Notes: generated by a model not told the origin, from the sequence alone. Shown: positions 30,881-62,839, numbered from the stretch's first letter. The stretch is 64,000 bases of DNA from Candidatus Kerfeldbacteria bacterium (GCA_043799405.1 JAZDNT010000001.1:25752-89751), one strand, 5' to 3'. Numbers and translations: made by a program.

Positions 30881-31128
30881 AGGTGTAGGTATTCTACGCG
30901 TCGATCAGCCGAACCGGCAAGTGCCGAATCACACAGGTTGTCCCCAGATTATTCGGAGGGAAAACCCTAGCGGTTTTCCCTTCCGATGCCTCCCTTTCCG
31001 TATACGGTGTCGCGCTTTGTTGCTCGCCTAGGGTACCGACCGGCAAAGCCGGTCACCCTGATACTCGCAACTTCAGACGCGACGTATCCTTCTTGAATAG
31101 AGTGGTTGTTAGCGTTATACTGTCGGGC

Positions 31129-31668
31129 ATGCCGACAACAGCATTCCCAACGGAGTACGTCGTCGTCGACGTAGAAACGACTGGGTTCAAACCAGAGGAG
31201 GGGCACGTCATCATCGAAGTCGCGGCCCAGAGGATCCATGGAAGCGACACCGTTGACCAGTACACCTCGCTCGTAACTGCTGACCGGCCGCTCCATCCGG
31301 ATAACGTGAAGTTCAACGGCATTGATGATAATTTGCTATTGAGAGAAGGGAAGAGCCCCTTGGACGTATTTCCTATCCTTCGGGAGTTCTTGCAGAACTC
31401 TGTCCTCATCGGTCACAATGTCCCGTTCGACATCGGATTCATGAACGCTCATTTCAAGAAGCACCAACTAGCGCTTCTCGATAATCAAACGCTCGATACG
31501 CTCGACCTTTCGCGCCGCTACCTTATTCTGCCGAGCTACTCGCTCGAATCGGTCGCGCGCTACCTAAAGGTTCCGCAGTCGGTCGCGCACCGCGCACTCG
31601 CTGATGTCGAAACAACGCGACTTGTATTCCTAAAGCTCGTTGAACGGGCGGCGAAGGTGGGGAGATAG
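31129..31668 (+). CDS. DnaQ-family 3'-5' exonuclease (Pol III epsilon-like)
   Basis: YVVVDVETTG (ExoI), IGHNVPFDIGF (ExoII), HRALADVETT (ExoIII). The start is ATG 31129 or an upstream alternative codon at 31093. Confidence 0.85.
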   Translation: MPTTAFPTEYVVVDVETTGFKPEEGHVIIEVAAQRIHGSDTVDQYTSLVTADRPLHPDNVKFNGIDDNLLLREGKSPLDVFPILREFLQNSVLIGHNVPFDIGFMNAHFKKHQLALLDNQTLDTLDLSRRYLILPSYSLESVARYLKVPQSVAHRALADVETTRLVFLKLVERAAKVGR

Positions 31669-31705
31669 TGCAAAACGAAAAGACCCTATTTATACTCGCG
31701 GGGCC

Positions 31706-32326
31706 TCATCGCGATGGGGTAGACAGGGCGTGGCGCCTGAACCGTTCCTTGCGCCGTTTTGAACAGAATACGGCGACGGTAAGGTGCGCAAACAGGAACA
31801 CGATCGGTGACACGTATGCGATCGGCCGCGCGTGCCGGTAGGCGACGTTCACGGTGCTGATGGCATACGCGAGCGTCCAGAGCTTCCACGGCAGCGCCGT
31901 TTCCGTGGTCGGATCCTTCCAGACACGGACGTACAGGGTGCGGTACACGATGAGGATTGTGGCGATGAGGATGAGATTCGCGAATGCGGCGTTGTGGAAG
32001 ACGAGCCACACCACTCCACTCACGGCTCCGGCTGCGAGGTAGGCGATCTCGTCCTTGGTCAGCTTCTCAAATCGCCCGATCTTCAGAATGTACACAAAGG
32101 TCGCGGTGGCGGCGACCATCATGGCGTAGTACTGGAGCGTGATGATCCAGTTTGACGTTGCCGCCTGGTAGGTGAAGGTAAGGAGTATCGCGAGAGCCGC
32201 CGATACGCCTATGACGGACACGAGCGGTTTCGACGTGCCGCGGGATGCCTGCACGCTGTACAGGAAGTAGGCGGTCGCGTGGATGCACGCCGCCGCCACA
32301 CCAAGTGCGAGCGATACGTGATCCAC
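31706..32326 (-). CDS. multi-pass membrane protein, unknown family
   Basis: Six to seven hydrophobic helices; no motif recognised. Confidence 0.55.
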   Translation of the reverse strand: MDHVSLALGVAAACIHATAYFLYSVQASRGTSKPLVSVIGVSAALAILLTFTYQAATSNWIITLQYYAMMVAATATFVYILKIGRFEKLTKDEIAYLAAGAVSGVVWLVFHNAAFANLILIATILIVYRTLYVRVWKDPTTETALPWKLWTLAYAISTVNVAYRHARPIAYVSPIVFLFAHLTVAVFCSKRRKERFRRHALSTPSR

Positions 32327-32466
32327 GGATCACCTCCGGAAAGCGGATGTCAACGAACTGCGGGAACGGACGGAATACCGTACCTTACTGAAAGGTATAA
32401 CAAAAGTCAAATACGATGTGTTTCATGTTGACCGGTCGCTGAAAAAGTGTAATTGTTCCGTTACGT

Positions 32467-32542
32467 GGGCCGCTAACTCAATTGGTAGAGTATCAGCCTT
32501 TTAAGCTGAGAGTTCCGGGTTCGAGTCCCGGGCGGCCTACCA
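32467..32542 (+). tRNA. tRNA-Lys (anticodon UUU), CCA encoded
   Basis: The cloverleaf folds by hand: acceptor GGGCCGC/GCGGCCT (G1:U72), anticodon loop CUUUUAA, T arm CCGGG-TTCGAGT-CCCGG, then ACCA. Confidence 0.93.
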
Positions 32543-32596
32543 TCCACATTTTTTATCGAGGGACCGGGAGGGTTCGCCAAGAGAATTTAGTATCGG
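32537..32596 (+). repeat. cassette-leader repeat R, copy 1 (starts in the tRNA 3' end)
   Basis: ctaccatccacattttttatcgagggaccgggagggttcgccaagagaatttagtatcgg, about 85% identical by eye to 33682-33741. Confidence 0.8.
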
Positions 32597-32604
32597 AGCG
32601 ATCC

Positions 32605-33048
32605 ATTATAGATAAAGTCACAAATAATCTAGTATTGGAACTTCACGTTCCCGACTTTAACAAGGCGCGGGAGTTCTACAAAATATTCGGTTTTAATCAG
32701 ATTAAATACGACCCAACATCAGGCGGTGGGAGCGATCTAGGATACATGATCTTAAAAAGAGAAGACGGCCTAGGAGAAACACATCTCAACTTCTATGGCG
32801 ATAAGGACAAAGTGTCTCAACACGCTCACTTTAGGGACTTCGCGGCATCAACTCCCCGGGGATATGCGGTAGAAATAACAATTCCTGTTTCGGATGTTCA
32901 TAAACTCTGGAATGACACGAAAGATTTATTGGATGCTTCACAGATTTCCCAACCATTGACTCTTAAACGTTGGGGAAAGGAAGATTTTAGAGTAGTCGAT
33001 CCATTCGGATTCTACGTTCGCTTTACTGAAATAGTCGACTGGTATTGA
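32605..33048 (+). CDS. glyoxalase/bleomycin-resistance (VOC) superfamily protein
   Basis: LELHVPDFNKAREFYKIFGF matches the beta1-alpha1 pattern. The track ORF starts inside the tRNA, so the real start is uncertain: ATT 32605 after a GGAG, or TTG 32635. Confidence 0.55.
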   Translation: MIDKVTNNLVLELHVPDFNKAREFYKIFGFNQIKYDPTSGGGSDLGYMILKREDGLGETHLNFYGDKDKVSQHAHFRDFAASTPRGYAVEITIPVSDVHKLWNDTKDLLDASQISQPLTLKRWGKEDFRVVDPFGFYVRFTEIVDWY

Positions 33049-33083
33049 ACCCGGGCGGCTCGCCAATAGAACTATTTATCAGG
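33049..33083 (+). repeat. partial R repeat, copy 3
   Basis: acccgggcggctcgccaatagaactatttatcagg aligns to the distal half of R (gaccgggagggttcgccaagagaatttagtatcgg). Confidence 0.6.
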
Positions 33084-33103
33084 CATAACCCGACTACTTA
33101 ACC

Positions 33104-33589
33104 ATGGATCGTTTTACCGACGCAATTCGTAAATCCATTAGCGACCAAAACTGGTTTGCTGCGTTATTTTTATCACTTTGCATGCCAGATATCTGTGGCT
33201 CCTTGGAAACTCCCGATGAGCAAGTTGGCCCTCGATACAAAAGGTGGTTTGGGGCTAATTTAGCGACATCATATTCTTCAATGTTTTCTGCAGAAGATTG
33301 TTATTCCTTTCGTTGTAGTTGTCTGCACCAAGGCCTTGATACACACCAGCGAATGTCCCATGAACGAATACATTTCATTACCCCGCCTCCCCGGGGCAAT
33401 GTGGTACATTGCAATATGTTTAATAACGTTCTTCAGCTGCAAATTGATATTTTCTGTGAAGATGTTGCCATGGCTGTTGATTCTTGGTATGAAGCTGTGA
33501 AAAATAATCCAGAAATCCAAGCAAGGGTCGAGGCGTTAATTAAGATATACGGCCCCGAGTCACTCCAACCATTTATTGCCTTCCAGTAG
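33104..33589 (+). CDS. hypothetical protein (cassette 2)
   Basis: 161-aa ORF in AT-richer sequence than the flanks; no family recognised. Confidence 0.55.
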   Translation: MDRFTDAIRKSISDQNWFAALFLSLCMPDICGSLETPDEQVGPRYKRWFGANLATSYSSMFSAEDCYSFRCSCLHQGLDTHQRMSHERIHFITPPPRGNVVHCNMFNNVLQLQIDIFCEDVAMAVDSWYEAVKNNPEIQARVEALIKIYGPESLQPFIAFQ

Positions 33590-33591
33590 CA

Positions 33592-33741
33592 CCCCGACCG
33601 AGAGGTATCAAATCACCCATAGGAAATAGCGCAAAAAAGCCTTACAATGCCCCTACAGTCCAGGTGCTAGACCAGCGCGGGCTACCATCAACACTTTTTA
33701 TCGAGGGACCGGGAGAGCCCGCCAAGAGAACTAGGTATCGG
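33592..33741 (+). repeat. composite junction: L repeat copy 1 (ends in the tRNA-like gcgggctacca) fused to R repeat copy 2
   Basis: L at 33592-33687 matches 34492-34588. R at 33682-33741 matches 32537-32596. Confidence 0.8.
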
Positions 33742-33776
33742 GTGACCCGAGTACTAGTATAAAAGCGAATGCTCAT

Positions 33777-34421
33777 ATGTTTGACGCTATCGTAGTATTC
33801 GGCGGGGGAATAAGCCCCGACGGATCACTTGAAGAAAATTCACGTGTTCGAGTCAAAAAAGCGATTCGATTGTGGAACGACAAGCTTGCTCCGGTCATAG
33901 TCATGTCAGGAGCTTGGGCGTCTTCGAGTGTTATGATGCCGTTACGAACCGAGGCTGCGGCTATGGCAGAACTTGCTGAACAGCTCGGTTGTCCATCAAG
34001 TTGCATACTTAAGGAAGAGCAGTCAAAAGAAACGATTGGAAACGCATACTTTGTCAAAACACTTTTTGCCATCCCAAGAAAATGGCGAAGTCTTGTTATC
34101 GTTGCAGCAGATTACCATATTCCTCGAACACGTCAGATATGCCATAAAGTTTTCGGTCCAGATTATCATCTCACTTTCGAAAGTGCGCCATTGCCAATGA
34201 CAATTGATGAGCGAAAAGAACGCGACATCGGCGAATTAGCTCGTTTATCAATATTCAATGAATGGATCGATGCGCAACCTGGTGATCACCGAGCGATTTG
34301 GGGGGTCTTAAGTACCATACATCCGGCATACTCGAAACATCCGAAGTATTCTCGAGAAGATATAGTCCGCTTAATCGCGGAGCGAATCGTGAAGTTACGC
34401 GCCGAGAGAATCGGGTCCTGA
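33777..34421 (+). CDS. DUF218/YdcF(ElyC)-like protein (cassette 3)
   Basis: IVVFGGGI..DGS....S..R...A..L......P.I..SG; E..SKETIGNA; LVIVAADYHIPR. Confidence 0.7.
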   Translation: MFDAIVVFGGGISPDGSLEENSRVRVKKAIRLWNDKLAPVIVMSGAWASSSVMMPLRTEAAAMAELAEQLGCPSSCILKEEQSKETIGNAYFVKTLFAIPRKWRSLVIVAADYHIPRTRQICHKVFGPDYHLTFESAPLPMTIDERKERDIGELARLSIFNEWIDAQPGDHRAIWGVLSTIHPAYSKHPKYSREDIVRLIAERIVKLRAERIGS

Positions 34422-34491
34422 CCTCACCGCACATAGAGGTTTTTTAAGCGATCTACCTGCCTCAAATCGTCTCCGTAAAAAACCCAAAAGA

Positions 34492-34588
34492 CCCCGACCG
34501 AGAGGCGTCAAATCGAGCTATAGGAAATAGCGCGAAAAAGCCTTATAATACCCCTACAGTCCAGTTCCCAGACCGGGGCGGGCTACCA
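34492..34588 (+). repeat. L repeat copy 2 (terminal; ends in ggcgggctacca)
   Basis: ccccgaccgagaggcgtcaaatcgagctataggaaatagcgcgaaaaagccttataatacccctacagtccag...gggctacca. Confidence 0.8.
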
Positions 34589-34623
34589 AACAGCGCAGCG
34601 ACCATATATACGTCGTCTTTATT

Positions 34624-34646
34624 TTCGCGAAAATTCGCGATATACT
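34624..34646 (+). promoter_or_regulatory. two TTCGCGA palindromic half-sites 10 nt apart abutting a TATACT -10 box (candidate metalloregulator operator)
   Basis: ttcgcgaaaattcgcgatatact lies 9 nt upstream of the Nramp ATG. Confidence 0.35.
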
Positions 34647-34654
34647 GACAACGC

Positions 34655-35917
34655 ATGTTCCACCTAAAAAAAATATTCAAGAAAATCGGTCCCGGCGTGA
34701 TAACCGGCGCTTCGGACGATGACCCCTCGGGTATAGCCACGTACTCGCAGACAGGGGCCAGGTTCGGGTACCAGATGCTCTGGCTTGCGCTCGTATCGAC
34801 GCCGCTCATGATGGCAGTGCAGGAGATGTCGGCGCGGCTCGGCATGGTGACCGGACGGGGCCTTGCGGGCATCCTAAAGAAGCACACGTCGGCAAAGGTC
34901 GTGTTCGTGCTCGCAAGTCTCCTCTTCCTCGTGAACACCATTAACATCGGGGCAGACCTCGGCGCAATGGCGGAGGCGTCGCGTCTCGTGCTGAACGGGC
35001 CAGGATGGCTCTACCTCATACTGTTCACGGCCGCGATCGTCCTACTAGAGATCTTCGTGAGCTACAGGAAGTACGTGAACGTACTGCGGTGGCTGACGTT
35101 CGTGCTGTTCGCGTACGTCGCTGCGGCTTTCTTCGTTCAGCAGAACTGGTGGGAAATAATAACAAGTACGATCATCCCTTCGTTCAGTTTGAACAAGGAG
35201 ATGTGGCTGATGATCGTTGCAGTGCTCGGGACCACTATATCACCCTACTGTTTCTTCTGGGAAGCCTCCGAAGAGGTCGAGGATGAGATCGCCGAAGGGC
35301 GTACGACGATCAAGAAACGCACGGGGGCGACGAAGAAGGAGATACGGTCAATGCGCGAAGAGACGGTCGTTGGGATGAGCTACTCGAACATCGTCATGTT
35401 CTTCATCATCATCACGACGGCCGCAACCCTTCATCGCGCCGGCATCACGTCGATCGGGAACGCGAGCCAAGCCGCAGAAGCGCTCCGCCCTCTCGCCGGT
35501 AACCTGACCTTTATGCTTTTTACAGTAGGCATCATCGGTACTGGCTTGCTCGCGATCCCGATACTCGCGGGATCGGCTTCGTATGCGATCGCAGAAGTGT
35601 TCGGATGGAAGGAAGGACTATCGAAGCAGTACCGTCAGGCGCACGCGTTCTACCTCGCCATAGCCGCTTCCGTTATCCTCGGGCTCATCGTGAACGTCAT
35701 CGGCATTCCTCCGATGCAGTTCCTCATCTACGCCGCGGTCCTCAACGGCCTGCTCGCTCCCGTTATCATCTGGTTCATTCTCCGATTGTCTGACCGCCGC
35801 GACGTTGTCGGCGTCCATACGAGTACGCCATGGGTCCGCTTCTTCGGATGGTTCGCCTTTTGCGTCATGTCGCTGTCTGCGTGTATCCTTGTGTATCAGT
35901 CACTCTTCGTCGTATGA
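34655..35917 (+). CDS. Nramp-family divalent metal transporter
   Basis: GPGVITGASDDDPSGIATYSQTGARFGYQMLW, about 11 TM segments. Confidence 0.85.
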   Translation: MFHLKKIFKKIGPGVITGASDDDPSGIATYSQTGARFGYQMLWLALVSTPLMMAVQEMSARLGMVTGRGLAGILKKHTSAKVVFVLASLLFLVNTINIGADLGAMAEASRLVLNGPGWLYLILFTAAIVLLEIFVSYRKYVNVLRWLTFVLFAYVAAAFFVQQNWWEIITSTIIPSFSLNKEMWLMIVAVLGTTISPYCFFWEASEEVEDEIAEGRTTIKKRTGATKKEIRSMREETVVGMSYSNIVMFFIIITTAATLHRAGITSIGNASQAAEALRPLAGNLTFMLFTVGIIGTGLLAIPILAGSASYAIAEVFGWKEGLSKQYRQAHAFYLAIAASVILGLIVNVIGIPPMQFLIYAAVLNGLLAPVIIWFILRLSDRRDVVGVHTSTPWVRFFGWFAFCVMSLSACILVYQSLFVV

Positions 35918-38652
35918 ACAAGGAACGATCAATCCAGCCACCAGCTACTGTCCAGTGGCACTCGATGACCGTCGAGCAGACGCTTCAGAAACTCCAGGTA
36001 TCGTTATCCGGACTACGGACTGAAACCGTTCCCGAACGCCGAAAACTGTTCGGCCGCAACGATCTTCCCCAACAGCGCCGTCGTTCTTCGATCGTCATAC
36101 TGCTCAATCAGTTCCGGAGCCCGCTTGTCCTTGTGCTCTTCGCTGCCGCCGCAATATCGTTCTGGTTCCGCGCCGCCGCCGACGGCTGGATCATCCTGTT
36201 CATCATCGCATTCAATGGGATAGTCGGCTTCTACCAGGAGCGGCGCGCCGGACACGCGATGGAGCGATTGCAGTCCCTGACACCCCAGCACGTCCATGTT
36301 CTCCGCGACGGCGAGGAACAGGAGATCCTTGCGGACCAGCTTGTCGTCGGTGATATCGTTAAGCTTGAGGTCGGCTCGATCGTACCGGCAGACGGAAGGA
36401 TCGTCGAATCGGTCAACATGAAGATCAATGAAGCTGTGTTCACCGGCGAATCGGTGCCTGCACAGAAGCACTGCGATCCGCTTCCTGAATCTACGGAGCT
36501 CACTGACCGGAGGAACTGCGCGTGGAGGGGAACAACCATCGCCGGAGGGCGCGGAATTCTCGTTGTCGCGGCAGTAGGCACTGCAACCCGGTTCGGTGAG
36601 ATCGTCAGGGAAGTCGCAGACATCGGTACGCAGGAAACGCCGTTCCAGAAGAAGATCGGTGAGTTCGCCCGACGGCTCGCGTTCGTAATAGTTATTCTAT
36701 CGCTGGGCGTGTTCATTGTCAGCGTGATGCGCGGTATCCATTTCGAACGGGCGCTGCTCCTCGGGGTCAGCCTCGTTGTTTCTCTCATCCCGGAGGGATT
36801 GCCGGTTGTCATCACGCTGACGTTCGCCTGGGGCATGTGGGAGATGGCGAAACGCCGCGCGCTCATACGAAAGCTCTACGCCGTGGAAACGCTCGGTTCC
36901 GTCACCGTGATCGCAACGGATAAGACCGGGACCCTTACCTTCGGGGAAATGATGGTTGAACGAATAGTCATTGACGGGCGGACGATCTCCGTGACCGGAG
37001 AAGGATACAGGAAGAGCGGCGACTTTTTCGAGTCAGAAAAACGGATTGCACCGATCGAGGACCCTGTGCTGAAGAGGCTCCTTGAAATCGGCATACTCAA
37101 TAACGACAGCAGGATAACCCACGATGAAAAGGGACGCGAGCGCTGGATAGGCGATCCCACCGAGACCTGCCTCATTGTTCTTGGTGAGAAAGCCGGGTTC
37201 AGACACGCTGATCTCGATCTTGCCTTTCCGCGCGTCGGGGAGTTCCCGTTCGATTTTTCACTGAAGTACATGGTCACCTTCCATACGACCCCGGAAGGAA
37301 AGACGCTGATCGCGGTCAAGGGCGCCCCACGGCAGATCCTGCAGCTCTGTACGAGAAAAATGGTACCGCACGGCATCGAGGCGTTCACCGACCGTGATCG
37401 TGAAGAGATCCGAAATGAGTTCGAGGCCATGGCAGCGACGTCGCTTCGAGGCCTTGCCTTCGCATACGCTGAGGTTGAAGGAAAGTGGGAACTCATCACC
37501 CACCAGAATCTGCATGAACATTTGGTGTACCTCGGCCTCGTCGGTATTCGGGACACGATCCGGCCGGAAGCGCGTGAAACCGTCTCATCGGCTCGTGCCG
37601 CAGGCATTCAGGTGGTCATGCTGACCGGCGATTACCACGAAACAGCGATAAACGTCGCGAAGGAGATAGGCCTTCTCGGACAGAACGAGCATGAGGAGAG
37701 GGTGCTTGATGGGAAAAACATCGATGCCCTGAACGATGAACAGCTGCGAATGCGTCTCCGTCAGACCGTCGTCTACAGCAGGGTATCGCCCGAACAGAAG
37801 CTCCGTATCGCACAGCAGTTCAAGGCGAGCGGCGAAATTATCGCAATGACCGGCGACGGGATCAATGACGTACCTGCCCTTTCCGAAGCGAACATCGGGG
37901 TTGCCATCGGGGTAACGAGCACCGACGCGGCAAAAGAGGCGGCGGAAATGGTCATTACTGACGGCAACCTTTCGAGCATCGTGTCCGCGATCGAGGAGGG
38001 CAGGGCGATATTCAGGAACATCCAGCGCGTGCTCATCTTCCTCCTCGCATCGAACTTCGGCGAACTGATCCTTATTTGTCTCGCGATCTTCCTCGGATTC
38101 CCGCTTCCTCTTCTCCCGATCCATATAATGTGGTTGAATGTCATAACCGATCCGTTCCTCGGTATCGCGCTTGCACGTGAACCGAAAGGTCCCGAAATCA
38201 TGCGGGAACCGCCGAGGCCGCCGAAAATGCCGGTCATCGATAAGGCACGGTGGGGAAGGATCGCGCTCAATGGCATTACGATCGGGTTCGTATCATTTAT
38301 TGTGTTCATCATCATGCTGGCCCGGAACCGCCCCGAACAAGAGCTCTACGCCGTTACACTGACCGCGGTCGCGCTCGGAGAGTGGACCGTTGCGTATACG
38401 AGCAGGTCTTCGCGGCGTAGCACCTTCTCGCGCTTTTTCGCCAACAAGTTCATCGTACCCGTTACCATCGTCGTCATCGCAATGCAGGTATCCATTCTTT
38501 CGGTTCCTTCTCTTTCTACCGCGTTCCATCTTGATCGGATCGGATTGATTGATTGGTTGCTTGCGGGAAGCGTCGCCGTCGCTGTTCTCATCGTCGAAGA
38601 GATTAGAAAAATGGTTTCCCGCCGAAAACCACATTACAGAACCGTCGTATGA
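35914..38652 (+). CDS. cation-transporting P-type ATPase (type II, Ca2+/Mg2+-like)
   Basis: TGES, PEGLP, DKTGTLT, MLTGD, TGDGINDVPAL. ATG 35914 overlaps the Nramp stop (ATGA). Confidence 0.92.
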   Translation: MNKERSIQPPATVQWHSMTVEQTLQKLQVSLSGLRTETVPERRKLFGRNDLPQQRRRSSIVILLNQFRSPLVLVLFAAAAISFWFRAAADGWIILFIIAFNGIVGFYQERRAGHAMERLQSLTPQHVHVLRDGEEQEILADQLVVGDIVKLEVGSIVPADGRIVESVNMKINEAVFTGESVPAQKHCDPLPESTELTDRRNCAWRGTTIAGGRGILVVAAVGTATRFGEIVREVADIGTQETPFQKKIGEFARRLAFVIVILSLGVFIVSVMRGIHFERALLLGVSLVVSLIPEGLPVVITLTFAWGMWEMAKRRALIRKLYAVETLGSVTVIATDKTGTLTFGEMMVERIVIDGRTISVTGEGYRKSGDFFESEKRIAPIEDPVLKRLLEIGILNNDSRITHDEKGRERWIGDPTETCLIVLGEKAGFRHADLDLAFPRVGEFPFDFSLKYMVTFHTTPEGKTLIAVKGAPRQILQLCTRKMVPHGIEAFTDRDREEIRNEFEAMAATSLRGLAFAYAEVEGKWELITHQNLHEHLVYLGLVGIRDTIRPEARETVSSARAAGIQVVMLTGDYHETAINVAKEIGLLGQNEHEERVLDGKNIDALNDEQLRMRLRQTVVYSRVSPEQKLRIAQQFKASGEIIAMTGDGINDVPALSEANIGVAIGVTSTDAAKEAAEMVITDGNLSSIVSAIEEGRAIFRNIQRVLIFLLASNFGELILICLAIFLGFPLPLLPIHIMWLNVITDPFLGIALAREPKGPEIMREPPRPPKMPVIDKARWGRIALNGITIGFVSFIVFIIMLARNRPEQELYAVTLTAVALGEWTVAYTSRSSRRSTFSRFFANKFIVPVTIVVIAMQVSILSVPSLSTAFHLDRIGLIDWLLAGSVAVAVLIVEEIRKMVSRRKPHYRTVV

Positions 38653-42093: not shown

Positions 42094-43355
42094 TGAAAAC
42101 AGCAACTATTCGTCATATAGCAGCACAGGAAATCCTCGATTCGAGGGGTGAGCCGACCATCCGTACGACCGTTGAACTAAAGAACGGTATGCGTGCGTCT
42201 GCAACGGTACCCGCTGGCGTATCGACTGGCTCGCACGAGGCGCACGAGAAGCGCGACGGCGGCGTTCGTTACGGCGGCAAGGGTGTACTTCGCGCTGTCC
42301 GGAACGTTACAACCGTGATCAGTAAGATGCTCTCTGGTGTTCCGATAGGCGATCAGCGCGGAATTGACGATCGGCTCATCGCGCTTGATCCTAAGCCGCA
42401 TCGCGACAGGATCGGAGCGAACGCCCTCCTCGGTGTTTCTCTTGCCTGCGCACGCGCAGGAAGCATTGCATCAGAAACCCCGCTCTACGTATACCTTCGA
42501 GAACAATTCTCTTTTCCAAAACCATCAACGTTCCCGAAACCGATGTGCAATATTCTCAATGGAGGACGACACTCTGACAACGGTATTTCGTTCCAGGAGT
42601 ACTTGGTCATTGCGGACGGAAGGACGATCCGAGAACAGCTTGAACGGGTATGGCGGGTCATTCGTGCCGTGAAAAGCGAACTCGTTACTCGTGGTGACAG
42701 GACGCTTGTCGGCGATGAAGGAGGGTTTGCGCCGCTGCTATCCTCGAACGAAGAAGGGCTTCGACTTCTCACAAAAGCGATCCGTCGCGCAGGCCTCCGT
42801 ATAGGAAAGGACGTTTCGCTGGCGCTCGACATCGCGGCGAGTGAATGGTACAGTGCGTCTCGTTCTAGCTACTTCATGAAGCCGGAAAAGAAAGCGTACA
42901 GCGGAACGGCACTCGCGCGATACTACCAGCGGCTCGCGACGAAGTATAACCTTCGATCGATTGAAGATCCGTTCGCGGAGGATGACTGGGATAACTGGAC
43001 GCTGCTTACGGAAAAACTCGGACGCTCTCTACTGCTGATCGGAGATGACCTCTTTGTAACGCAGAAGAGCCGTCTTGCACAAGGCGTTCATGTCCACGCG
43101 GCGAACGCGATTCTCATAAAACCGAATCAGGTCGGAACGCTCACCGAGACCATGGAAACGATTCAAAAAGCACGCGCATCGCATTACACGTACGTGATCT
43201 CGCACCGTTCAGGAGAGACCTGCGACGATTTCATCGCTGATCTTGCCGTAGCGGTCGGGAGCCCGTTCCTAAAAGCAGGTTCTCTCGCGAGAGGCGAACG
43301 ACTTGCTAAGTATAATAGGTTGCTCGTTATTGCGGAGGAGATTGGAATACTATGA
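42093..43355 (+). CDS. eno: enolase
   Basis: I.A.EILDSRG.PT; STG..EA.E.RDG; IKPNQVGTLTET; SHRSGET.D. Confidence 0.96.
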   Translation: MKTATIRHIAAQEILDSRGEPTIRTTVELKNGMRASATVPAGVSTGSHEAHEKRDGGVRYGGKGVLRAVRNVTTVISKMLSGVPIGDQRGIDDRLIALDPKPHRDRIGANALLGVSLACARAGSIASETPLYVYLREQFSFPKPSTFPKPMCNILNGGRHSDNGISFQEYLVIADGRTIREQLERVWRVIRAVKSELVTRGDRTLVGDEGGFAPLLSSNEEGLRLLTKAIRRAGLRIGKDVSLALDIAASEWYSASRSSYFMKPEKKAYSGTALARYYQRLATKYNLRSIEDPFAEDDWDNWTLLTEKLGRSLLLIGDDLFVTQKSRLAQGVHVHAANAILIKPNQVGTLTETMETIQKARASHYTYVISHRSGETCDDFIADLAVAVGSPFLKAGSLARGERLAKYNRLLVIAEEIGIL

Positions 43356-44914
43356 GCCCTCGAGCAACAACGCCGCTGGTGCTGACGATATTCGACGGAT
43401 GGGGAATTGCCCCGGCAGGCCCCGGGAACGCTATTACACTTGCTAAGACCCCCATTATTACCGCGCTTCAGAAGAAGTACCCATCTACCACGCTTGTTAG
43501 CAATGGAAAGGCAGTCGGTTTACCGACCAATCAAGAGGGTAACTCAGAAGCAGGTCATATGAATATCGGCGCCGGAAGGGCAGTTGAGCAGGACGCCGTA
43601 CGAATATCACGGAATATTTCCCAGGGTCGCTTCTTCAAGAACGCAGCTTTTCTCGCTGCACTGCACCACGCGAATAAGTACCGTTCCCAGCTGCACCTCA
43701 TCGGGCTCCTTACGACCGATCAGAGCGGACACGCCGATCCCGATCACATTATCGCTCTTCTCACAATGGCGCATGAGCACAAGGTGCGTTCGATCGTGCT
43801 TCACCTTTTCACGGACGGCAGGGATTCGCCGCCATCATCGGGGATACATTTACTCCGCAACATCGAAAGGCAGCTTCCGCCGGGGGCACGCATCGGTACT
43901 ATAATCGGCCGGTTCTACGCAATGGATCGCAAGAAGGTATGGGACCGGATACAACGTTCGTACGATACGCTTGTGAGCGGAGATGGGCGTCAGGCAGAGA
44001 CTGCTGAGACCGCGATACTCGAAGCGTATGAGCGAGGAGAGACCGATGAGTTCATTCAGCCGACCGTTATCGGACCGCGGACGAAGAGCCGCATTCGTTC
44101 GAACGATTCAATAATATATTTCAACCTTCGGTCCGACCGTGCGCGTGAACTGACAAAAACGTTCGTACAGAAAGATTTCACCACGCTCAATCCGGGATCG
44201 TTTAAGAGGAAGAAGGTTCCCCGGAACGTTTTGTTCGTTGCAATGACCGACTTCGGTCCCGATCTCGGTGAGATATACACGGCGTTTCCTTCGGTCGATC
44301 TCTACAACACGCTTCCTATGGTGCTGCGCAGGTACAAACAGCTCTTTATAGCTGAGAGCGAAAAATATGCGCACGTAACGTTTTTCTTCAATGGTGGCTA
44401 CTCGCAGCCTGTCGCAGGCGAGGACCGTATTCTTGTGCCGTCTCCTGATGTCATGTCGTATGACCAGGCTCCATTGATGAGCGCGAAAAAAATTACCGAC
44501 ATTATCGTTACTGACCTCAAGCAGAAAAAACACGACATCATCGTAATGAATTTTGCGAACCCCGACATGCTTGGCCATACCGGGAACCTTAAAGCGACGA
44601 TTACCGCGATCGAAACCATCGATTCGTGCGTTGGCAGGATACGAGACGCCGTTTCCGAAAGGGGAGGAACACTGATTCTGACCGCTGATCACGGTAATGC
44701 CGAAGATATGATATCAGCGGACGGAAAGAGCATTGATACCGAACACTCGAGGAACCCTGTTCCCTTTACCATCGTTACGCCGAAGCCGCTAGCCATCAAA
44801 CTACGATCGGATGGGATACTCGCTGATGTTGCACCGACCGTTCTCGACCTCCTCGACATCCAAAAGCCGATCGCTATGACCGGTACGAGCTTGCTTCACG
44901 GCTATGCCGACTAA
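43352..44914 (+). CDS. gpmI: 2,3-bisphosphoglycerate-independent phosphoglycerate mutase, copy 1 (more divergent)
   Basis: ILDGWG; GNSEAGHMNIGAGR; HLFTDGRD; ADHGNAE. Confidence 0.9.
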   Translation: MSPRATTPLVLTIFDGWGIAPAGPGNAITLAKTPIITALQKKYPSTTLVSNGKAVGLPTNQEGNSEAGHMNIGAGRAVEQDAVRISRNISQGRFFKNAAFLAALHHANKYRSQLHLIGLLTTDQSGHADPDHIIALLTMAHEHKVRSIVLHLFTDGRDSPPSSGIHLLRNIERQLPPGARIGTIIGRFYAMDRKKVWDRIQRSYDTLVSGDGRQAETAETAILEAYERGETDEFIQPTVIGPRTKSRIRSNDSIIYFNLRSDRARELTKTFVQKDFTTLNPGSFKRKKVPRNVLFVAMTDFGPDLGEIYTAFPSVDLYNTLPMVLRRYKQLFIAESEKYAHVTFFFNGGYSQPVAGEDRILVPSPDVMSYDQAPLMSAKKITDIIVTDLKQKKHDIIVMNFANPDMLGHTGNLKATITAIETIDSCVGRIRDAVSERGGTLILTADHGNAEDMISADGKSIDTEHSRNPVPFTIVTPKPLAIKLRSDGILADVAPTVLDLLDIQKPIAMTGTSLLHGYAD

Positions 44915-46481
44915 CTACCGCCCTCTCGTTCTCGTCGTGCTCGATGGTTGGGGCGTAGCGCCGAAGAACCGTGGTAACGCGATCATGTTGGCAAAAACAC
45001 CGACGTGGGACCGTTTGCTGCAGACGTATCCTTCGGTAACGCTTCAGGCGTCGGGCGAATCCGTCGGTCTCCCCTGGGGCGAGATGGGAAACTCCGAGGT
45101 CGGGCACATGAACATCGGAGCAGGGAAGATCATTTTTCGTGACCTTCCGAGGGTTAACCACGCTATTATCGATGGTACATTTTTCGATCGACCCGCGTTC
45201 ATTCAGGCAACTGATCACGTTCGAAAGACGAAGGGAAACCTCCACATCGTCGGGCTCATGAGTACCGGCGGCATCCACAGTTTCAATGAGCATTCGTACG
45301 CCCTTCTCGAATTCGCCGCAAAGGAAAAGATCAAGAACGTCTTCATGCACGTCATCCTCGATGGACGCGACACGCCCCATAACAGCGGCGAAGCGTTCGT
45401 ATCGAAGCTTGAAGGAAAACTGAAGGAGATGAAGTTCGGGAGGATCGCGACAATTGCCGGTCGTTTCTGGGCAATGGACCGTGATAACCACTGGGATCGC
45501 ATTCAGAAGGCATACCGCGCGATGGCAGAAGGCGCTGCTGATGAAACGTTCACCGATCCGATCGTTGCGGTGCGTACGTCGTACAGCCGCGGGATCTACG
45601 ATGAGGAATTCGTTCCGACGGTGATCACAAATACGGATGGCAGTCCGCGCGGCGTCGTGCAGGAGGGGGACAGTGTCATCTTCTTCAATTTTCGTTCTGA
45701 TCGTGCCCGTGAGATGACGAAAGCGTTCGTCTTGCCGGGATTCAACAAGTTCGATCGCGTGTACCTCAAAGATCTCACCTTCGTTGCCATGACCGAGTAC
45801 GAACAGAACCTTCCGGTTCTCGTTGCGTTCCCTCCTGAAGTCGTTCTGACCCCGTTCGCGAAGGTTATCAGTGACATAGGAGAGAAACAGCTGCACGTCG
45901 CAGAAACCGAGAAGTACGCCCACGTGACGTTCTTTTTCAACGGCGGCAGGGAAGAGCCCTTCCCCGGGGAGTCGCGATTACTCGTTCCGTCGCCTTCGGT
46001 TTCAAGCTATGACCAAAAACCGGACATGAGCGCGCGTGACGTAACGGAAAGGACGATAAAAGAACTCGGATCCGGGTTGTACGGATTCGTAATCGTTAAC
46101 TACGCTAATGCCGACATGGTCGGTCACACGGGGAACATTCCGGCAACGACAAAGGGTATCGAGACGATTGATGATCAGATCGACCGCCTTTCCTCAGCAG
46201 TACTGAACCTCGGCGGAGTCATGGTCATTACCGCAGATCACGGTAACGCTGAGGAGAAACTCAACCTCACCACTGGTTTCATTAACAAGGAACATACTGC
46301 GAACGCCGTTCCGTTCGTGCTCATCGGTAAGCAGTGGGAGGGGCGGGGAAGGAAATCGGCTGATCTGAGCACGGTCACCCCGAGCGGCATGCTCGCCGAT
46401 GTCGCACCGACCCTTCTTGAGCTTGAGGGACTTCCTAAACCGCCAGAAATGACGGGGAGAAGTTTCTTGAAGCTACTGTAA
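44904..46481 (+). CDS. gpmI: 2,3-bisphosphoglycerate-independent phosphoglycerate mutase, copy 2
   Basis: VLDGWG; GNSEVGHMNIGAGK; H.ILDGRDT; NYANADMVGHTG; ADHGNAE. Confidence 0.93.
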   Translation: MPTNYRPLVLVVLDGWGVAPKNRGNAIMLAKTPTWDRLLQTYPSVTLQASGESVGLPWGEMGNSEVGHMNIGAGKIIFRDLPRVNHAIIDGTFFDRPAFIQATDHVRKTKGNLHIVGLMSTGGIHSFNEHSYALLEFAAKEKIKNVFMHVILDGRDTPHNSGEAFVSKLEGKLKEMKFGRIATIAGRFWAMDRDNHWDRIQKAYRAMAEGAADETFTDPIVAVRTSYSRGIYDEEFVPTVITNTDGSPRGVVQEGDSVIFFNFRSDRAREMTKAFVLPGFNKFDRVYLKDLTFVAMTEYEQNLPVLVAFPPEVVLTPFAKVISDIGEKQLHVAETEKYAHVTFFFNGGREEPFPGESRLLVPSPSVSSYDQKPDMSARDVTERTIKELGSGLYGFVIVNYANADMVGHTGNIPATTKGIETIDDQIDRLSSAVLNLGGVMVITADHGNAEEKLNLTTGFINKEHTANAVPFVLIGKQWEGRGRKSADLSTVTPSGMLADVAPTLLELEGLPKPPEMTGRSFLKLL

Positions 46482-58439: not shown

Positions 58440-58716
58440 CGCTAAGCTCGTTCTCGGGATACTCGTAAGAACATCGCGAGATCCCCTGGACCGAGTCGAT
58501 GAACATAGTGTTCACCGATTCAGTCCAGAACGCTCATTACAACTTGAAGGTCAGTATCTCCCCATTGATACCGCAGAAGGTTCGTCACGCACGTGGCGTG
58601 TCTCCTGCGGTATCAATCAGCTTGTTGCCAGTACTCTGCACGGCACGACTACGAACGTGGTCCATGCCTAATACCCATGACGGGTTTTGCAGATACTGCA
58701 ACGAGGAGGAGCTCAG

Positions 58717-59419
58717 ATGAAGCGTCTCACGTTGGTCACGATCGCGCTGCTCGCGCTCGTCCTGTCCTTCGCCGGCATCGCGCTGGCAGAGAACACGAAG
58801 TTCACCGCGAATTCGACCACAACGGGTTCGATCGACACGGGTCCGTTCACGGACGCCGTGAAGGCCGAGCTCGCCAAGGGTGTGAACGTCCACGTGACGC
58901 CGGTCGGACTCGGTGGGGGTCAACCGCCGGCTCGACGCGACGGACGCCAAGCTCGATCGCATGGAGGCCAACGCGGACGATCGCGGGGGACAGCAGTTCC
59001 GCGACCACGAGTCGCAGTCAGCTGCTCTCGGCCGCATCGAGAGCAAACTCGACAAGGGCAACGGCAACGTCGTCGGGTGGCTCGCACTCATCCTCGCTGG
59101 TATCGCATTGCTGGTCGCGCTTCTCAACCGGGGACGCGACGGGCGTGATGGTCGCAACAGCGACATCTGCCGGGACGAGGTCGGCGAGATGATCGCCGAC
59201 GCAATCATCGCCCACGAGGAGGGCGACGGGCACAAGACCAATGCTGGTCCGAAGGGCGACCCCGGACCCGCCGGCAAGGACGGACGCGACGGCTGCTGCC
59301 ACGAGCACGGTAAGTGCACCTGTGGTCACGCGACCAACGTCATCACCGTCAACGGCGGCACGGTGAACGTCTACAACGGCGCCACGACCGTGACGCCCTC
59401 GGCCACGGCCCAGGCCTGA
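58717..59419 (+). pseudogene. island ORF D: signal-peptide protein joined by a +1 frame change at GGTGGGGGT (58912-58920) to a coiled-coil/TM/collagen-like (G-x-y) protein
   Basis: Frame 1 reads MKRLTLVTIALLALVLSFAGIALA|ENT...VTPVGLGG. GC3-rich coding then continues only in frame 2 (VNRRLDATDAKLDRME...GPKGDPGPAGKDGRDG...). Frame 1 beyond 58920 is Arg-rich junk. Confidence 0.55.
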
Positions 59420-59623
59420 TCTTCAACCTCCGCCTACGCGCTCATAGCGCTTCGGCGGACTAGTACAGGGGAGGTGACATGGTTCTATCCCATGCGCCTC
59501 CCCTCCGATTCCGAATCCACCATACGATTGGCGGATTGAGAATAGGAATGCTCGTCGTAAAACATCGTCAACGGGTCGAAAAGACCCACTAGCAGCGGTC
59601 GTATCCTTCAGGGAGGACGGAAC

Positions 59624-59887
59624 ATGCAGTTCTGCTGCATCCGTAATGGACGGCTTCAGCGAACCAGTGGTCGATTTGGCGGCGACCAGAAGTTCGAGGT
59701 TCGGTTGTCGGACGCTCGCTGCGTCATCGCAGCAAAGCGCCATGAGGCCGACATCGTCGAGGTGTTTCTCAACGGCGTCGACAAGCCCGTGGTCGTGAAG
59801 GCCAAGCCCTTCACGGGTCCCCGGACGATCCTCGTCTGTGTCGTGCCGTCCCGCGCGACGGCACTTCTCACGCGTGCGAGGGCCTGA
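59624..59887 (+). CDS. island ORF E: 87-aa soluble protein
   Basis: GGGAGGA sits 6 nt before the ATG; no family recognised. Confidence 0.5.
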   Translation: MQFCCIRNGRLQRTSGRFGGDQKFEVRLSDARCVIAAKRHEADIVEVFLNGVDKPVVVKAKPFTGPRTILVCVVPSRATALLTRARA

Positions 59888-60212
59888 CCGATGGTTGGTG
59901 CCAGCACGACCACCCCGGATTGGGCCACGAGGGACCGATCTGGTTCCTCGACGAGCTCAAGCTCGAGGCAGCACGCCAGACCTGCTAGTAGCTCGTTCGT
60001 CGGGCAGGCAACAGCAGAGCACCGCTGTTGACCTGCCCATCGAACTTGAGTACAGTAATCCGTTACCGTGTTCAAGTTCGATAGCTCATTACAATCCATC
60101 ACCCTGTTTCCAGCGAGGGATCGAGTCCGTTGAAACAATGCGGATTCAGTTCCTCGCTGGACATCCTAAACCCCGGATCCTCAGGCAATGAGCCAAGAGG
60201 GAAGGAGCGAAC

Positions 60213-60695
60213 ATGAACAGGACGTTGGTCGCGTGGTCGTTGATTGGGCTTGCGATCGTGCTGCTTGGTCTCGTGGTTTGTTTGACCGCAGATCGCTATG
60301 TGCGGGATCGCAACGCACAGCACAACGTCGCGATCGCGGAACACGCGTTCGTAAAGTACCTTTCGGCATGGGAATACGGACGCTACCCCCACATGGGGTA
60401 TGAGATTGAGACCTACATCGATACGCCAAACCACCTGCTCCTCAATCCCTTCACTGGGAAGATGGAGCACATCGTGTTCTGGGATGGGCCCGGCACGAAA
60501 ACCGTACCTGGTCAGACATGCTACACAGTGCTTTGGCGTGCGGATTCGACAGGACACTGTATTGTCCCGCTCGAAGGATTCGCAGCCGTGGTCTGGGTTG
60601 CGGGAAACGACGACTATCGGCTCCACCTGACATACGTCGGGGAGCAGCTGTACCCACCGATACGGCAGGTTCTCGGCAGGTCGTCGACGAGGTGA
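60213..60695 (+). CDS. island ORF F: 160-aa N-terminally anchored extracytoplasmic protein
   Basis: GGAAGGAG sits 5 nt before the ATG. There is a single N-terminal TM and a Cys pair (CYTVLWRADSTGHC) near the C-terminal third. Confidence 0.6.
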   Translation: MNRTLVAWSLIGLAIVLLGLVVCLTADRYVRDRNAQHNVAIAEHAFVKYLSAWEYGRYPHMGYEIETYIDTPNHLLLNPFTGKMEHIVFWDGPGTKTVPGQTCYTVLWRADSTGHCIVPLEGFAAVVWVAGNDDYRLHLTYVGEQLYPPIRQVLGRSSTR

Positions 60696-60834
60696 CCGAC
60701 AGGATGATGGACAATGCGGGGAGGAAGTGGCAGAGTATCGCTAACTTCCTTCCCGCACCTGTTCCGAGCTGATGTTGAAAAACACCCGTTCAGAATAGGA
60801 AGCTCGTTACAAGAAGCGGTTTATATGACGGCAG

Positions 60835-61170
60835 GTGCGGCATCGCTTTTCAGCGGTGCCACATCTGTCGTCATTCCCCATGCCGCAGAAAGGTTACACC
60901 GTGCGGTGGTATCACTACATCCTCGTCGACGCCGTCCTGCTTGCAGTCATTCTCGGGACGGCGAAGATTCTCGGGTTCTGTAACACCCGGGAGCAGATGT
61001 GGACTCTCATCAGCGCCTCCTTGCTCGGGATTCTTGTCTCGTACCTCGTAACGATTGCGACATCGCGTTCGAGAAAGAGACGTCGTCCGCTCCTTCGGAT
61101 CGAACCGTGGGTTGATAAGCACGGCAATGTCCAGGAGCCGGAACGGCGCATGAACCCGGGCAGGTGGTAG
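60835..61170 (+). CDS. island ORF G: 2-TM protein (start uncertain: GTG 60835 or ATG 60880)
   Basis: Hydrophobic helices and a basic tail; no clear SD. Confidence 0.45.
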   Translation: MRHRFSAVPHLSSFPMPQKGYTVRWYHYILVDAVLLAVILGTAKILGFCNTREQMWTLISASLLGILVSYLVTIATSRSRKRRRPLLRIEPWVDKHGNVQEPERRMNPGRW

Positions 61171-61184
61171 CGCGAGGAGGACGT

Positions 61185-61361
61185 ATGAACCGGTTGTATG
61201 TGTTCATCGCGGTGATTGTGGCTATCGGCCTCATACGGTTCATTGCCGCGTGGTGGCCGAGGGAGCCGTGTCGCCGGCTGCCGGCTCGTGAACTCCGGTT
61301 GGAGTTCATGAAGGTGTCAGGGATCGGGTACATTCCCGGTTCCATCAAGCCGCAAAAGTAG
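61185..61361 (+). CDS. island ORF H: 58-aa single-TM protein
   Basis: GAGGAGGA sits 3 nt before ATG 61185. Confidence 0.5.
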   Translation: MNRLYVFIAVIVAIGLIRFIAAWWPREPCRRLPARELRLEFMKVSGIGYIPGSIKPQK

Positions 61362-61608
61362 GGGCCGCTGTATTGAAGTGGGTTGCGACGTTCGACACAA
61401 GAGCGTTGCAACCCCTTCACCCCCGAGTCTATTGGGAATACAATAGGTTCAGGAGTGGAGAGAGTAGTACCAGTTCATTACAACCCGAACTTGAGCAACT
61501 CATGGCGGTGCTGTAGAGGCTAACCTTGGCACCTGCAGCGCCGTCATGAGTACTTGATGGCAATAGAGCCCCTACAGGGATGGACAGACCTCAACAAGGA
61601 GGTGACTG

Positions 61609-61923
61609 ATGTTGGACCTCAGGAATTGGGCGCAGTTGCCGTTGTACATCTGCGACATCGTCGCGTGGCTTGGACTCGTGGGTACGATCTTTGTGGTCGT
61701 GATCGAGTTCAACACACGGCGCGATCGGTGGATGAACGATTGGGTGTCAGATTGGCTCGGCTGGCGTGAGGTAATCACGATCATGATGCTGATCGTTGTG
61801 ACTGTCCGGCTCTCGGACAAGCCGCACGACTGGCTCATGCTCGCTGCTGTTCCGGTCTTTCTGATTGGTACCTACATCCTGATCCCTCTGCTCGGGAGGA
61901 AGCAGCGGATCTATAGTTGTTGA
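61609..61923 (+). CDS. island ORF I: 104-aa 3-TM protein
   Basis: AAGGAGGTG sits 4 nt before the ATG. Confidence 0.6.
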   Translation: MLDLRNWAQLPLYICDIVAWLGLVGTIFVVVIEFNTRRDRWMNDWVSDWLGWREVITIMMLIVVTVRLSDKPHDWLMLAAVPVFLIGTYILIPLLGRKQRIYSC

Positions 61924-61999
61924 GCTATCCCCCGCAAGTCCGCCGAAGTGCCCTGCCGTGAGGCGATCACGGTAACCCCCCCGCGTAAGGACTACGCGC

Positions 62000-62449: not shown

Positions 62450-62762
62450 CCGCTTAAGTTCGAGCAGAAAAGGGAAGGTCGTGAATGTCAATGGGACAAC
62501 CACCTTGCATTACCGCGACCTTCCCGACCTTTCTTCTGTGACCTCATTCCGCTAAGGAGTGGGACGTAGAACAAAGGTCATTCACAATATAATGGTCTCC
62601 GGCGATCCGGCCGGAACAGATCCACACTCATCATGGCGCATGTGTTGTTCCTGAAAAGGAACAGAAACTCTCTCCTCACGCATGCAACGGTTAAGCGGGG
62701 ATACTGCGTCTGGTCGGATCATCGGGGGTCACGTTCGGCGAGACCACCTCTCCGCTTCGCGG

Positions 62763-62839
62763 TTTCCCCTCCTACCTCCCCGCCGCCAGGCGGCACCCCT
62801 CCTAAACTTAGGAGGGGGAGGGAGCGGTAGGAGGGGAAA
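62763..62839. repeat. perfect nested palindrome (three-way junction) built from CCCCTCCTA / TAGGAGGGG units
   Basis: The outer 14-bp stem pairs 62763-62776 with 62826-62839. The inner hairpins are GCCGCC-a-GGCGGC (62782-62794) and CCCCTCCTAA-ac-TTAGGAGGGG (62796-62817). Confidence 0.85.

Follow-up and report, generated by a model that had tools for sequence, protein, structure and literature searches.

Immediately downstream of its tRNA-Lys gene, a Candidatus Kerfeldbacteria bacterium (GCA_043799405.1 JAZDNT010000001.1:25752-89751; 64,000 nt read on one strand, the whole of which is referred to here as the window) carries a block of 2,046 nt (32543-34588), which sits between the tRNA and an Nramp gene. 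We hold with moderate confidence that this block is a tandem array of non-autonomous integrative cassettes, similar to cis-mobilizable elements (CIMEs) and inserted at the terminal CTACCA of the tRNA, which either use an unlinked recombinase or have been left stranded. Two recurring arms, R (about 60 nt) and L (96 nt), are placed around three cargo genes, in the order tRNA, R1, gene 1, a short site with a leader, gene 2, L1, R2, gene 3, L2 and host flank. An initial annotation had described a tRNA-Lys gene with a repeat array at this place, and every feature was found again at the coordinates given. Candidate-phyla bacteria have tiny genomes, and their gene acquisition is little understood.

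The tRNA-Lys(UUU) gene (32467..32542, plus strand, as are all features of the array) encodes its CCA, is the sole tRNA reported by ARAGORN in the window, and scores 68.9 bits against Rfam RF00005. The block that follows is foreign in composition to the host chromosome. Its GC content is 45.7% against 54.4% in the rest of the window, the lowest of 620 sliding windows (mean 0.540, sd 0.022), and the sliding-window values are back to 56-63% from about 34550 onward. An 83-nt direct repeat (32514-32596 and 33659-33741, 82% identity) takes in the final 29 nt of the tRNA together with R, in agreement with the initial claim of a repeat starting inside the tRNA 3' end. The 21-nt R core within it, TTTTTATCGAGGGACCGGGAG, occurs exactly twice in the 64 kb, with 0.00 occurrences expected. 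The R arm is built of a 19-nt junction-proximal module (TCaACAyTTTTTATCGAGG), a CGCCA-type mimic of the tRNA end, and a leader (A[G/T]AGAAyT...TATCrG). R1 (32543..32604), recognized by the direct repeat and by an R profile (nhmmer, E=3.9e-22), opens with the module TCCACATTTTTTATCGAGG (32543-61), continues with the second tRNA-end mimic, site S1 (ACCGGGAGGGTTCGCCA, 32563-79), and then enters the shared leader AGAGAATTTAGTATCGGAG.... R2 (33688..33776; nhmmer E=7.9e-24) has the module TCAACACTTTTTATCGAGG, site S4 (ACCGGGAGAGCCCGCCA, 33708-24) and the leader AGAGAACTAGGTATCGGGTGACCCGAG..., and runs to the ATG of gene 3. A partial R (33049..33103), located by the site pattern described below, has neither an L nor the 19-nt module, and consists of the 17-nt site S2 (ACCCGGGCGGCTCGCCA, 33049-33065), which lies directly after the stop codon of gene 1 and has the 10-mer CCCGGGCGGC in common with the tRNA, and of the leader ATAGAACTATTTATCAGG.... 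The initial annotation had taken it for a partial copy of R; the copy is real (33049-33097), but it is weak on its own (nhmmer E=0.19) and is better seen as a 17-nt mimic with a leader.

The L arms, L1 (33591..33687; profile search E=4.5e-27) and L2 (34491..34588; E=6.7e-31), are 86.7% identical over 98 nt, and both end in GGGCTACCA (sites S3 and S5, respectively), L2 closing the array. The left part of L holds motifs at a fixed spacing, CCGACC-N8-TCAAAT-N20/21-AAAAAG-N3-TAYAAT, which the window contains in L1 and L2 alone (0.00 expected); L1 reads CCGACC-N8-TCAAAT-N20-AAAAAG-N3-TACAAT, and the box of L2 is TATAAT. Additionally, both R arms contain the motif GACCGRGAGR, and both L arms have it at their outer end; the array thus has four copies and the rest of the window one (0.88 expected).

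The arms mimic the very end of the tRNA. Six sites of about 17-20 nt, including the tRNA itself, resemble the tRNA 3' end and all finish in CCA; those of the tRNA (S0, its last 17 nt, TCCCGGGCGGCCTACCA, 32526-32542) and of the L1 and L2 ends terminate in CTACCA, and those inside R1, inside R2 and in the partial R terminate in CGCCA. A degenerate pattern derived from the six has no further match in the window, even when one mismatch is tolerated (0.54 expected). The right 29 nt of L resemble the T-arm and the acceptor 3' strand of tRNA-Lys, and when aligned in the register that the junction sets, the terminal 29 nt of L1, L2 and two L copies from other genomes match the tRNA 3' end at 22, 22, 20 and 20 of 29 positions, respectively, whereas none of 100,000 shuffles did as well. 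The similarity to the tRNA 3' end, which the initial annotation had exposed to refutation by formal alignment, therefore holds in a fixed-register comparison. It is also specific to this tRNA-Lys; of 26 positions, L shares 17-19 with it and 3-13 with the ten other tRNAs compared. The mimicry owes its strength to the register set by the junction; a free local alignment of L to the tRNA alone is not significant (nhmmer E=2.2). The idea that L is a whole tRNA in decay was rejected, since beyond the last 29 nt the fixed-register identity drops to background (23-25 of 50). A possible further CCA-type site at the L 5' end (..CGTCA) has an end-anchored identity to the other sites of just 6 of 19.

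The junctions define the likely point of insertion. Behind the tRNA as well as behind L1, R begins at the base next to CCA, and L2 is followed by AACAGCGCAG..., which is unrelated to R and was taken as host flank. The R and L repeats at these junctions bear out the attL-unit-att-unit-attR layout that had been suggested for the tRNA 3' end. Before TACCA, the tRNA reads GGCGGCC and every L reads GGGC (or TGGC); because these bases differ, the shared core and probable crossover site is CTACCA (32537-32542). Furthermore, the T-stem of the L mimic is unable to pair, and a crossover upstream of the core would give the tRNA this dead 3' half; as the tRNA is intact, we infer that strand exchange takes place at its extreme 3' end. 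A crossover in the anticodon loop was considered and rejected, as the unpaired T-stem of L would inactivate the tRNA.

In the mechanism that we propose, a unit would consist of an R arm, one or more cargo genes and an L arm, and the head-to-tail junction L-CTACCA-R (about 155 nt) would be the equivalent of attP. Units would have entered by site-specific recombination at the last tRNA bases, CTACCA, in such a way that the tRNA retains a working T-arm and acceptor strand and the non-functional L mimic lands at the right end of the unit. Further insertions into the same core would have built the array, and the empty site would read ...GGCGGCCTACCA/AACAGCGCAGCG. The enzyme would be supplied from outside the cassettes and the 64-kb window, or the units would be stranded. 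The three single-gene cassettes of the initial annotation have to be recounted on this basis. The genes and repeats are there, but they form two complete R...L units of unequal content, with the six CCA-ending mimic sites falling into the two subtypes given above. The first unit carries genes 1 and 2 around the remnant site S2 and looks like two former units between whose genes a deletion would have removed L together with the 5' part of R.

The same arms recur with other cargo outside the window. The L-CTACCA-R junction was found at 82-88% identity in two other organisms, represented by locus L002 and locus L003/L004, in front of unrelated cargo and in hosts of 42-46% GC; L-R repeats flanking different genes elsewhere, a prediction of the initial annotation, are thus seen. 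L001, L003 and L004 are one locus. The flanks of L003/L004 have 43-46% GC and the whole L004 contig has 42%. In L004, four small ORFans unrelated to the window cargo come after the junction, and behind them a second L, which is truncated. In L002, a different gene stands behind the junction, and a 99-nt insertion interrupts R.

Some details of these loci stand apart from the arms themselves. The insertion in L002 (L002:1116-1214) has 13-bp terminal inverted repeats, a flanking TTTATC duplication and a fold z of -3.96, far better than chance, and resembles a miniature inverted-repeat element, apparently inserted into R. In L004, the cargo genes at L004:2251-2587 and L004:2602-3059 are each bracketed by inverted repeats of their own (27 nt at 89% and 16 nt at 94%), which could represent pairing of mRNA ends or another layer of modularity. 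The L001 contig (CAZGDO010000031.1) stops about 15 nt past the outer L end, where the metagenome contigs L003 and L004 read through, and this assembly break hints at repeats or strain variation at L. The label Gammaproteobacteria on the L001 record is questionable. Within the window, an inverted copy (17 of 19 nt) of the R1 19-nt module lies inside gene 2 (33229-33247), over the conserved PRYKRW codons; it is probably a coincidence, with about 0.06 expected in the region.

A switch of tRNA is seen in L023/L024, from a host of 34% GC. Here a genuine tRNA-Ser(GGA) has the R-like ATTATCACTTTTTATTGGAG immediately behind its CCA; this sequence has the 10-mer CACTTTTTAT in common with R. The cargo is a gene 2 homologue (72% identical) and then a 312-aa gene, after which comes an L left arm with the spacing CCGACC-N8-TCAAAT-N21-AAAAAG-N3-TATAAT, the same as in the window L. 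At its end, this L mimics both the tRNA-Ser anticodon loop (CTTGGAAA) and the 3' end of that tRNA (CCCGCCA). Because the Ser mimics stand on an L-type arm, the same arms occur with a different tRNA-specific core. Locus L026, from a host of 54.5% GC, has a DUF218 unit that is 84.3% identical to that of gene 3 at the nucleotide level over 670 nt, with the homology beginning at the CCGCCA of site S4 and including the same leader; a shortened R lies upstream of it and a diverged L left arm downstream. In locus L008, CCTCTCCGCCA/AGAGAATTAAATATCGGAG, a tRNA-Ser-3'-end-like fragment joined to the same leader, precedes a gene 2 homologue that lies at an island's edge, in an island with a large serine recombinase 8 kb away.

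The conservation of the arms can also be considered from the side of gene expression. The TAYAAT box is kept in all L copies, the diverged Ser-type copy included. The proposal that R serves as a common 5' leader is supported in terms of position, as its 3' part precedes all three genes of the array and also the homologues of gene 2 and gene 3 in L008 and L026. Based on this conservation, L and R may act as promoter and leader. In the circle or in the array, each gene would then stand behind an L promoter and an R leader, with the first gene perhaps being read through from the tRNA, which is a weaker part of the scheme. If expression were the whole function, the L-R junction would be a portable terminator, promoter and 5' untranslated region with incidental likeness to a tRNA. 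We consider this very unlikely. The conserved box, the leader AGAGAA..TATCGG in front of unrelated genes and of the gene 2 homologue in another island (L008), and a hairpin with a T-rich run before L in L002 and L004 (terminator-like by eye) would agree with it. However, the repeat boundary is base-exact at the tRNA CCA, the mimic is statistically solid and tRNA-specific, the core becomes a tRNA-Ser mimic beside tRNA-Ser, the block is foreign in composition, the RNA fold is not significant and no Rfam family was matched.

The folding results behind the last point also bear on two mechanisms in which the ends would act as single strands. As RNA, the junction with its leader folds no better than shuffles (z -0.46), and the search of Rfam over 31000-36000 at E<=1 returned the tRNA plus sR33 (20.1 bits, E=0.85), which is below the gathering threshold and outside the array. 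As DNA, the L1-R2 junction gave z of +0.97 and +0.94 on the two strands, with 174 and 163 of 200 shuffles folding at least as well. An attC-like hairpin or a structured RNA was accordingly rejected. Pairing of the L end GCGGGCU with AGCCCGC in R was likewise rejected; it is perfect in L1-R2, with no compensatory changes in R1, L004 or L002 as judged by eye.

The first of these mechanisms is an IS200/IS605-type 'peel and paste' of single strands inserted 3' of TACCA, in which a Y1 HUH transposase would act in trans and the TACCA at the right end would recreate the target. Such an element would insert exactly 3' of a pentanucleotide, as observed, with no target duplication beyond the shared core; its asymmetric, non-inverted ends and single orientation are matched as well, and small hairpins can be drawn in R. 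It is nevertheless highly improbable, since the ends as single-stranded DNA fold no better than shuffles, no Y1_Tnp domain was found in the window open reading frames (ORFs) scanned or in the cargo, and a 29-nt tRNA mimic with a target-dependent core is foreign to that family. The second is a true integron array with attC hairpins and an IntI-like integrase, in other words a cluster of attC sites lacking an integron integrase (CALIN), which we find scarcely credible. Single co-oriented genes with repeats between them and no adjacent integrase are what it would show; but neither strand of the L-R junction has a hairpin beyond chance, the boundaries GGGCTACCA/TCAACAC and CGCCA/AGAGAA have no GTTRRRY, and the CTACCA/TCAACA junction lacks both GTTRRRY and RYYYAAC cores. 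In addition, the terminal site is a hybrid of L and host flank, as expected after attP x attB, and not a complete attC, and the array begins at a tRNA and not at attI. The integron-like logic of the initial annotation is thus a loose analogy at most.

The enzyme that would drive site-specific integration was sought in the window and beyond it. No recombinase or transposase Pfam domain was found in 69 window ORFs (nearly all non-nested ORFs of at least 100 aa, the three cargo proteins included), in keeping with the earlier statement that the array has no integrase, and none in the cargo of L004, L005, L013, L024 and L026. The initial annotation had suggested searching elsewhere for the L/R repeats with a recombinase beside them; the arms were found in other genomes, but the cargo scanned there held no recombinase. 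No element combining L/R with an integrase was retrieved in one scan of a genome collection, one of metagenomes, four of viral contigs and those of the phage and plasmid collections, a search that did not extend to the complete genome of the host. As a separate observation, L008 carries two large serine recombinase genes (L008:1070-2389 and L008:20075-20486), and the 3' end of one of them overlaps a tRNA-His; between the first recombinase and the gene 2 homologue, the island holds a ThsB-TIR gene, a LexA-like protein and a DNA methylase. In lineages such as L008, the tRNA-end integrases may be serine recombinases.

Several observations weigh against an array of integrative cassettes. No recombinase is linked to L or R in about ten distinct related loci, and viral contigs, phage genomes and plasmids were without L or R in pattern scans (and in a scan of viral proteins). 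No empty site was found either; relatives with an Nramp protein of 72-74% amino acid identity have other genes and no tRNA-Lys upstream of it. In L003/L004 the junction lies behind a DsbD-like gene on contigs without a tRNA, so the array there is not simply tRNA-docked. The sites are in part truncated or degenerate (S2 without L, one L of L004, and both arms of L026), a state that decay would explain no less well than activity. Owing to the weak -35, the TAYAAT box of L went uncalled in a scan for consensus promoters. By eye, there is no inverted core-site symmetry at the junction; the long arms and the GACCGRGAGR copies flanking the core invite the guess of a tyrosine integrase with arm-type sites, and it is a guess because no core symmetry is evident. 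Lastly, sampling is thin, with a handful of members of the arm family retrieved.

The same truncated sites, together with the lack of an integrase in the window or any related locus, are what the main alternative would predict, namely that the units are dead scars of integrase-bearing tRNA-Lys islands, now immobile, whose L and R persist through recency or a role in expression. Tycheposon islands with scattered partial tRNAs and degenerate elements offer a documented precedent, and the locus would then be a case of ordinary island decay at a tRNA hotspot. We regard this as rather unlikely. Decay would be expected to leave integrase fragments or pseudogene debris, yet there are none and the units are compact. 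Moreover, the 96-nt L and the R of about 60 nt remain 82-88% identical over hosts of 42-54% GC with unrelated cargo, and the spacing of the left-arm motifs survives the switch from a Lys to a Ser core. The cassette genes are all co-oriented, three of three on the tRNA strand in the window and likewise in L004, L005, L013 and L024, and the same integrase-less decay in four to five loci independently is unlikely.

The cargo genes differ in how far they can be assigned. Gene 1 (32605..33048; GC 41%), taken from the ORF list, is a weak VOC/glyoxalase-like candidate; the earlier assignment to the VOC family stands only as a tendency, with Pfam E=0.002-0.005, below the gathering cut-offs, and the gene has no NCBIfam or PADLOC match. 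Its start is uncertain, either ATT at 32605 (with GGAG 6 nt upstream) or TTG at 32635, as the ORF is open from 32482, within the tRNA. Gene 3 (33777..34421; GC 46.5%; 214 aa) is solidly a member of the DUF218/YdcF family (Pfam PF02698, E=4.8e-22), as had been claimed. Gene 2 (33104..33589; GC 43%; 161 aa) had been described as unknown, and in fact matches nothing in Pfam, NCBIfam or PADLOC. Its family (about 160 aa) is widespread, occurring in Enterobacteria, phages, prophages and 54 viral-contig loci, with the invariants NW..PD.C, R-x4-H (FRCSCLH in the window) and LQLQID.FC. The Rx4H motif hints that gene 2 may be a HEPN protein. The AlphaFold2 (AF2) model of gene 2, with a predicted local distance difference test (pLDDT) of 89, has as its significant structural matches uncharacterized phage proteins alone (E=5.6e-8), and its best match in the PDB, AbiV, is not significant (E=2.4).

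Following gene 2 leads to a wider pattern. Those of its homologues that were followed up in Patescibacteria-like contigs all lie in variable islands, directly behind tRNA genes in four of five distinct loci; this gene-2-led set is ascertainment-biased, and the homology of the tRNA-Gln arrays in it to the window system is unproven. These arrays stand behind tRNA-Gln(CTG) at a common YkuD-tRNA-Gln locus (L005:3300-7480, L006:1262-5440 and L013:2160-4770), where a repeat of about 37 nt (..GGTCCTAGACCGACCTGCTCAGCA, or more fully GTTATrGGAy..AGGTCCTAGACCGACCTGCTCAGCA) stands between the cassettes, which number three to seven, carry a single gene each, share one orientation and vary in content by genome. 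The repeat resembles the T-arm and acceptor strand of tRNA-Gln and has GGTnCTAGACC in common with the window L. Between L005 and L013, the gene 2 cassette occupies a different position in the array and is 87.5% identical at the nucleotide level, against about 70-72% for the core flanks, with the homology beginning at the CAGCA core.

This last comparison would suit an exchange by homologous recombination, in which DNA is taken up and L and R serve as portable homology arms for RecA-dependent swapping without a dedicated recombinase. Arms of 60-100 nt that are 82-88% identical between genomes, and the failure to find a recombinase, are in its favor as well. We judge such exchange to be unlikely for the window array, as the first docking needs a join exactly at CCA where the host shares 6-9 nt, homology of 80-88% over less than 100 nt is a poor RecA substrate, and the occurrence of the same arms with Lys or Ser cores is a pattern characteristic of att sites used in site-specific recombination.

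It is plausible that a general mechanism places cassettes at tRNA ends in this phylum. More specifically, and only as a tentative proposal, Patescibacteria may possess a gene-capture system with docking at tRNA 3' ends, recombinase-less cassettes, modular arms in which the mimic core alone is exchanged (Lys or Ser), and an unlinked recombinase, with the tRNA-Gln arrays as a short-site branch; it would be a functional analogue of the integron. If true, it would offer a cheap route for circulating accessory, and possibly defence, genes among lineages of very different base composition. The switch of a tRNA-mimic core between conserved arms would be a natural example of att-site retargeting, and the enzyme that acts on these sites, should it be found, would be a candidate for a programmable integrase. 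A different arrangement is seen in L007 (L007:6949-7120), where a 79-nt islet without genes comes behind a tRNA-Gln(TTG); 18 nt of the tRNA 3' end, CGAATCCATGTCCCGCAG, are repeated exactly at the boundaries of the islet, and a gene 2 homologue comes next. Just upstream, a GIY-YIG nuclease gene lies between tRNA-Glu and tRNA-Lys, and a duplicated tRNA-Glu 5' end is found further upstream.

The surroundings of the array are those of a core chromosome, the window containing a ribosomal protein operon, EF-G/EF-Tu, SecY, DnaB and glycolysis genes. On the host side of the insertion (34589..35917, plus strand), a 66-nt flank with an Nramp promoter/operator-like region precedes the Nramp gene (34655-35917; Pfam Nramp, E=1e-84). 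The synteny 3' of the insertion, Nramp-P-type ATPase-DUF2238-PMT-PGK-enolase-iPGM, is kept in relatives, and the DNA upstream of this conserved Nramp-ATPase-glycolysis block differs in every relative, making it a variable hotspot even without a tRNA. For example, L010:1-7900, upstream of Nramp, holds SIR2 and DUF87 genes with large ORFans, and L012:1-3900 holds a beta-helix protein. Elsewhere in the window, tandem full-length paralogues of cofactor-independent phosphoglycerate mutase (520 and 525 aa) follow enolase at 43352-46481, and a run of ORFs of 100-244 aa without a Pfam match, with GC of up to 63%, occupies 58500-64000 and may be another lineage-specific region.

A full-text search of the literature found nothing on such cassettes in Patescibacteria, and the array is best placed by comparison with known systems. 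Its logic would be similar to that of integron cassettes, namely small, promoter-dependent, co-oriented single-gene units with recombination sites between them and the enzyme elsewhere. However, it has no attC hairpin, no GTTRRRY core and no IntI, its end sites are hybrid and it docks at a tRNA; because attC is lacking, it is not an integron. Modules that depend on Xer, such as integrative mobile elements exploiting Xer (IMEX) and pdif modules, are likewise small and recombinase-less, borrow their enzyme and form arrays. Their sites are dif-like, 28 bp long and, in pdif modules, inverted, whereas those of the array are direct, long and tRNA-like; no dif-like site was seen in the array, where no formal dif-pattern search was made.

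Islands and prophages that target tRNAs through tyrosine integrases come closer, as they also dock at the tRNA 3' end, leave direct repeats of the tRNA end, are foreign in composition and carry a tRNA-derived segment in attP. The array differs from the classical islands in having no integrase at either end and units that are 10-50 times smaller, and the tRNA-like segment of its L is non-functional yet conserved between genomes. As no integrase was found, the array is not an integrase-bearing island. In the tycheposon islands of Prochlorococcus, successive integrations took place beside tRNA genes, with partial tRNA copies between them and degenerate remnants further in (bioRxiv 10.1101/2020.12.28.424599). 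The array is similarly placed beside a tRNA, would have been built by successive integrations at one site, and has its elements separated by copies of the tRNA end. Tycheposons, however, carry an integrase and a replication module, whereas neither such genes nor their remnants appear in the window or among the cargo domains, and the 96-nt and 60-nt arms have no described counterpart. Because it has no mobility module, the array is not a tycheposon.

CIMEs share an att site with other elements, beside which they stand in tandem, and obtain their recombinase from another element. They are defined as elements without integration or transfer genes whose attL and attR are intact (ICEberg 2.0, PMC6323972). 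The array likewise keeps complete R and L arms around its cargo and has no recombinase. In structure it belongs to this class; full membership, which is defined by a resident element that has the same att sites and mobilizes the unit, is putative. Known CIMEs are leftovers of recognizable integrative and conjugative elements or integrative mobilizable elements in Firmicutes, and are usually several kb long. In contrast, the units of the array measure 0.5-2 kb, carry one to four ORFan genes, have no known parent, reside in a Patescibacterium and bear arms that occur with different tRNA cores.

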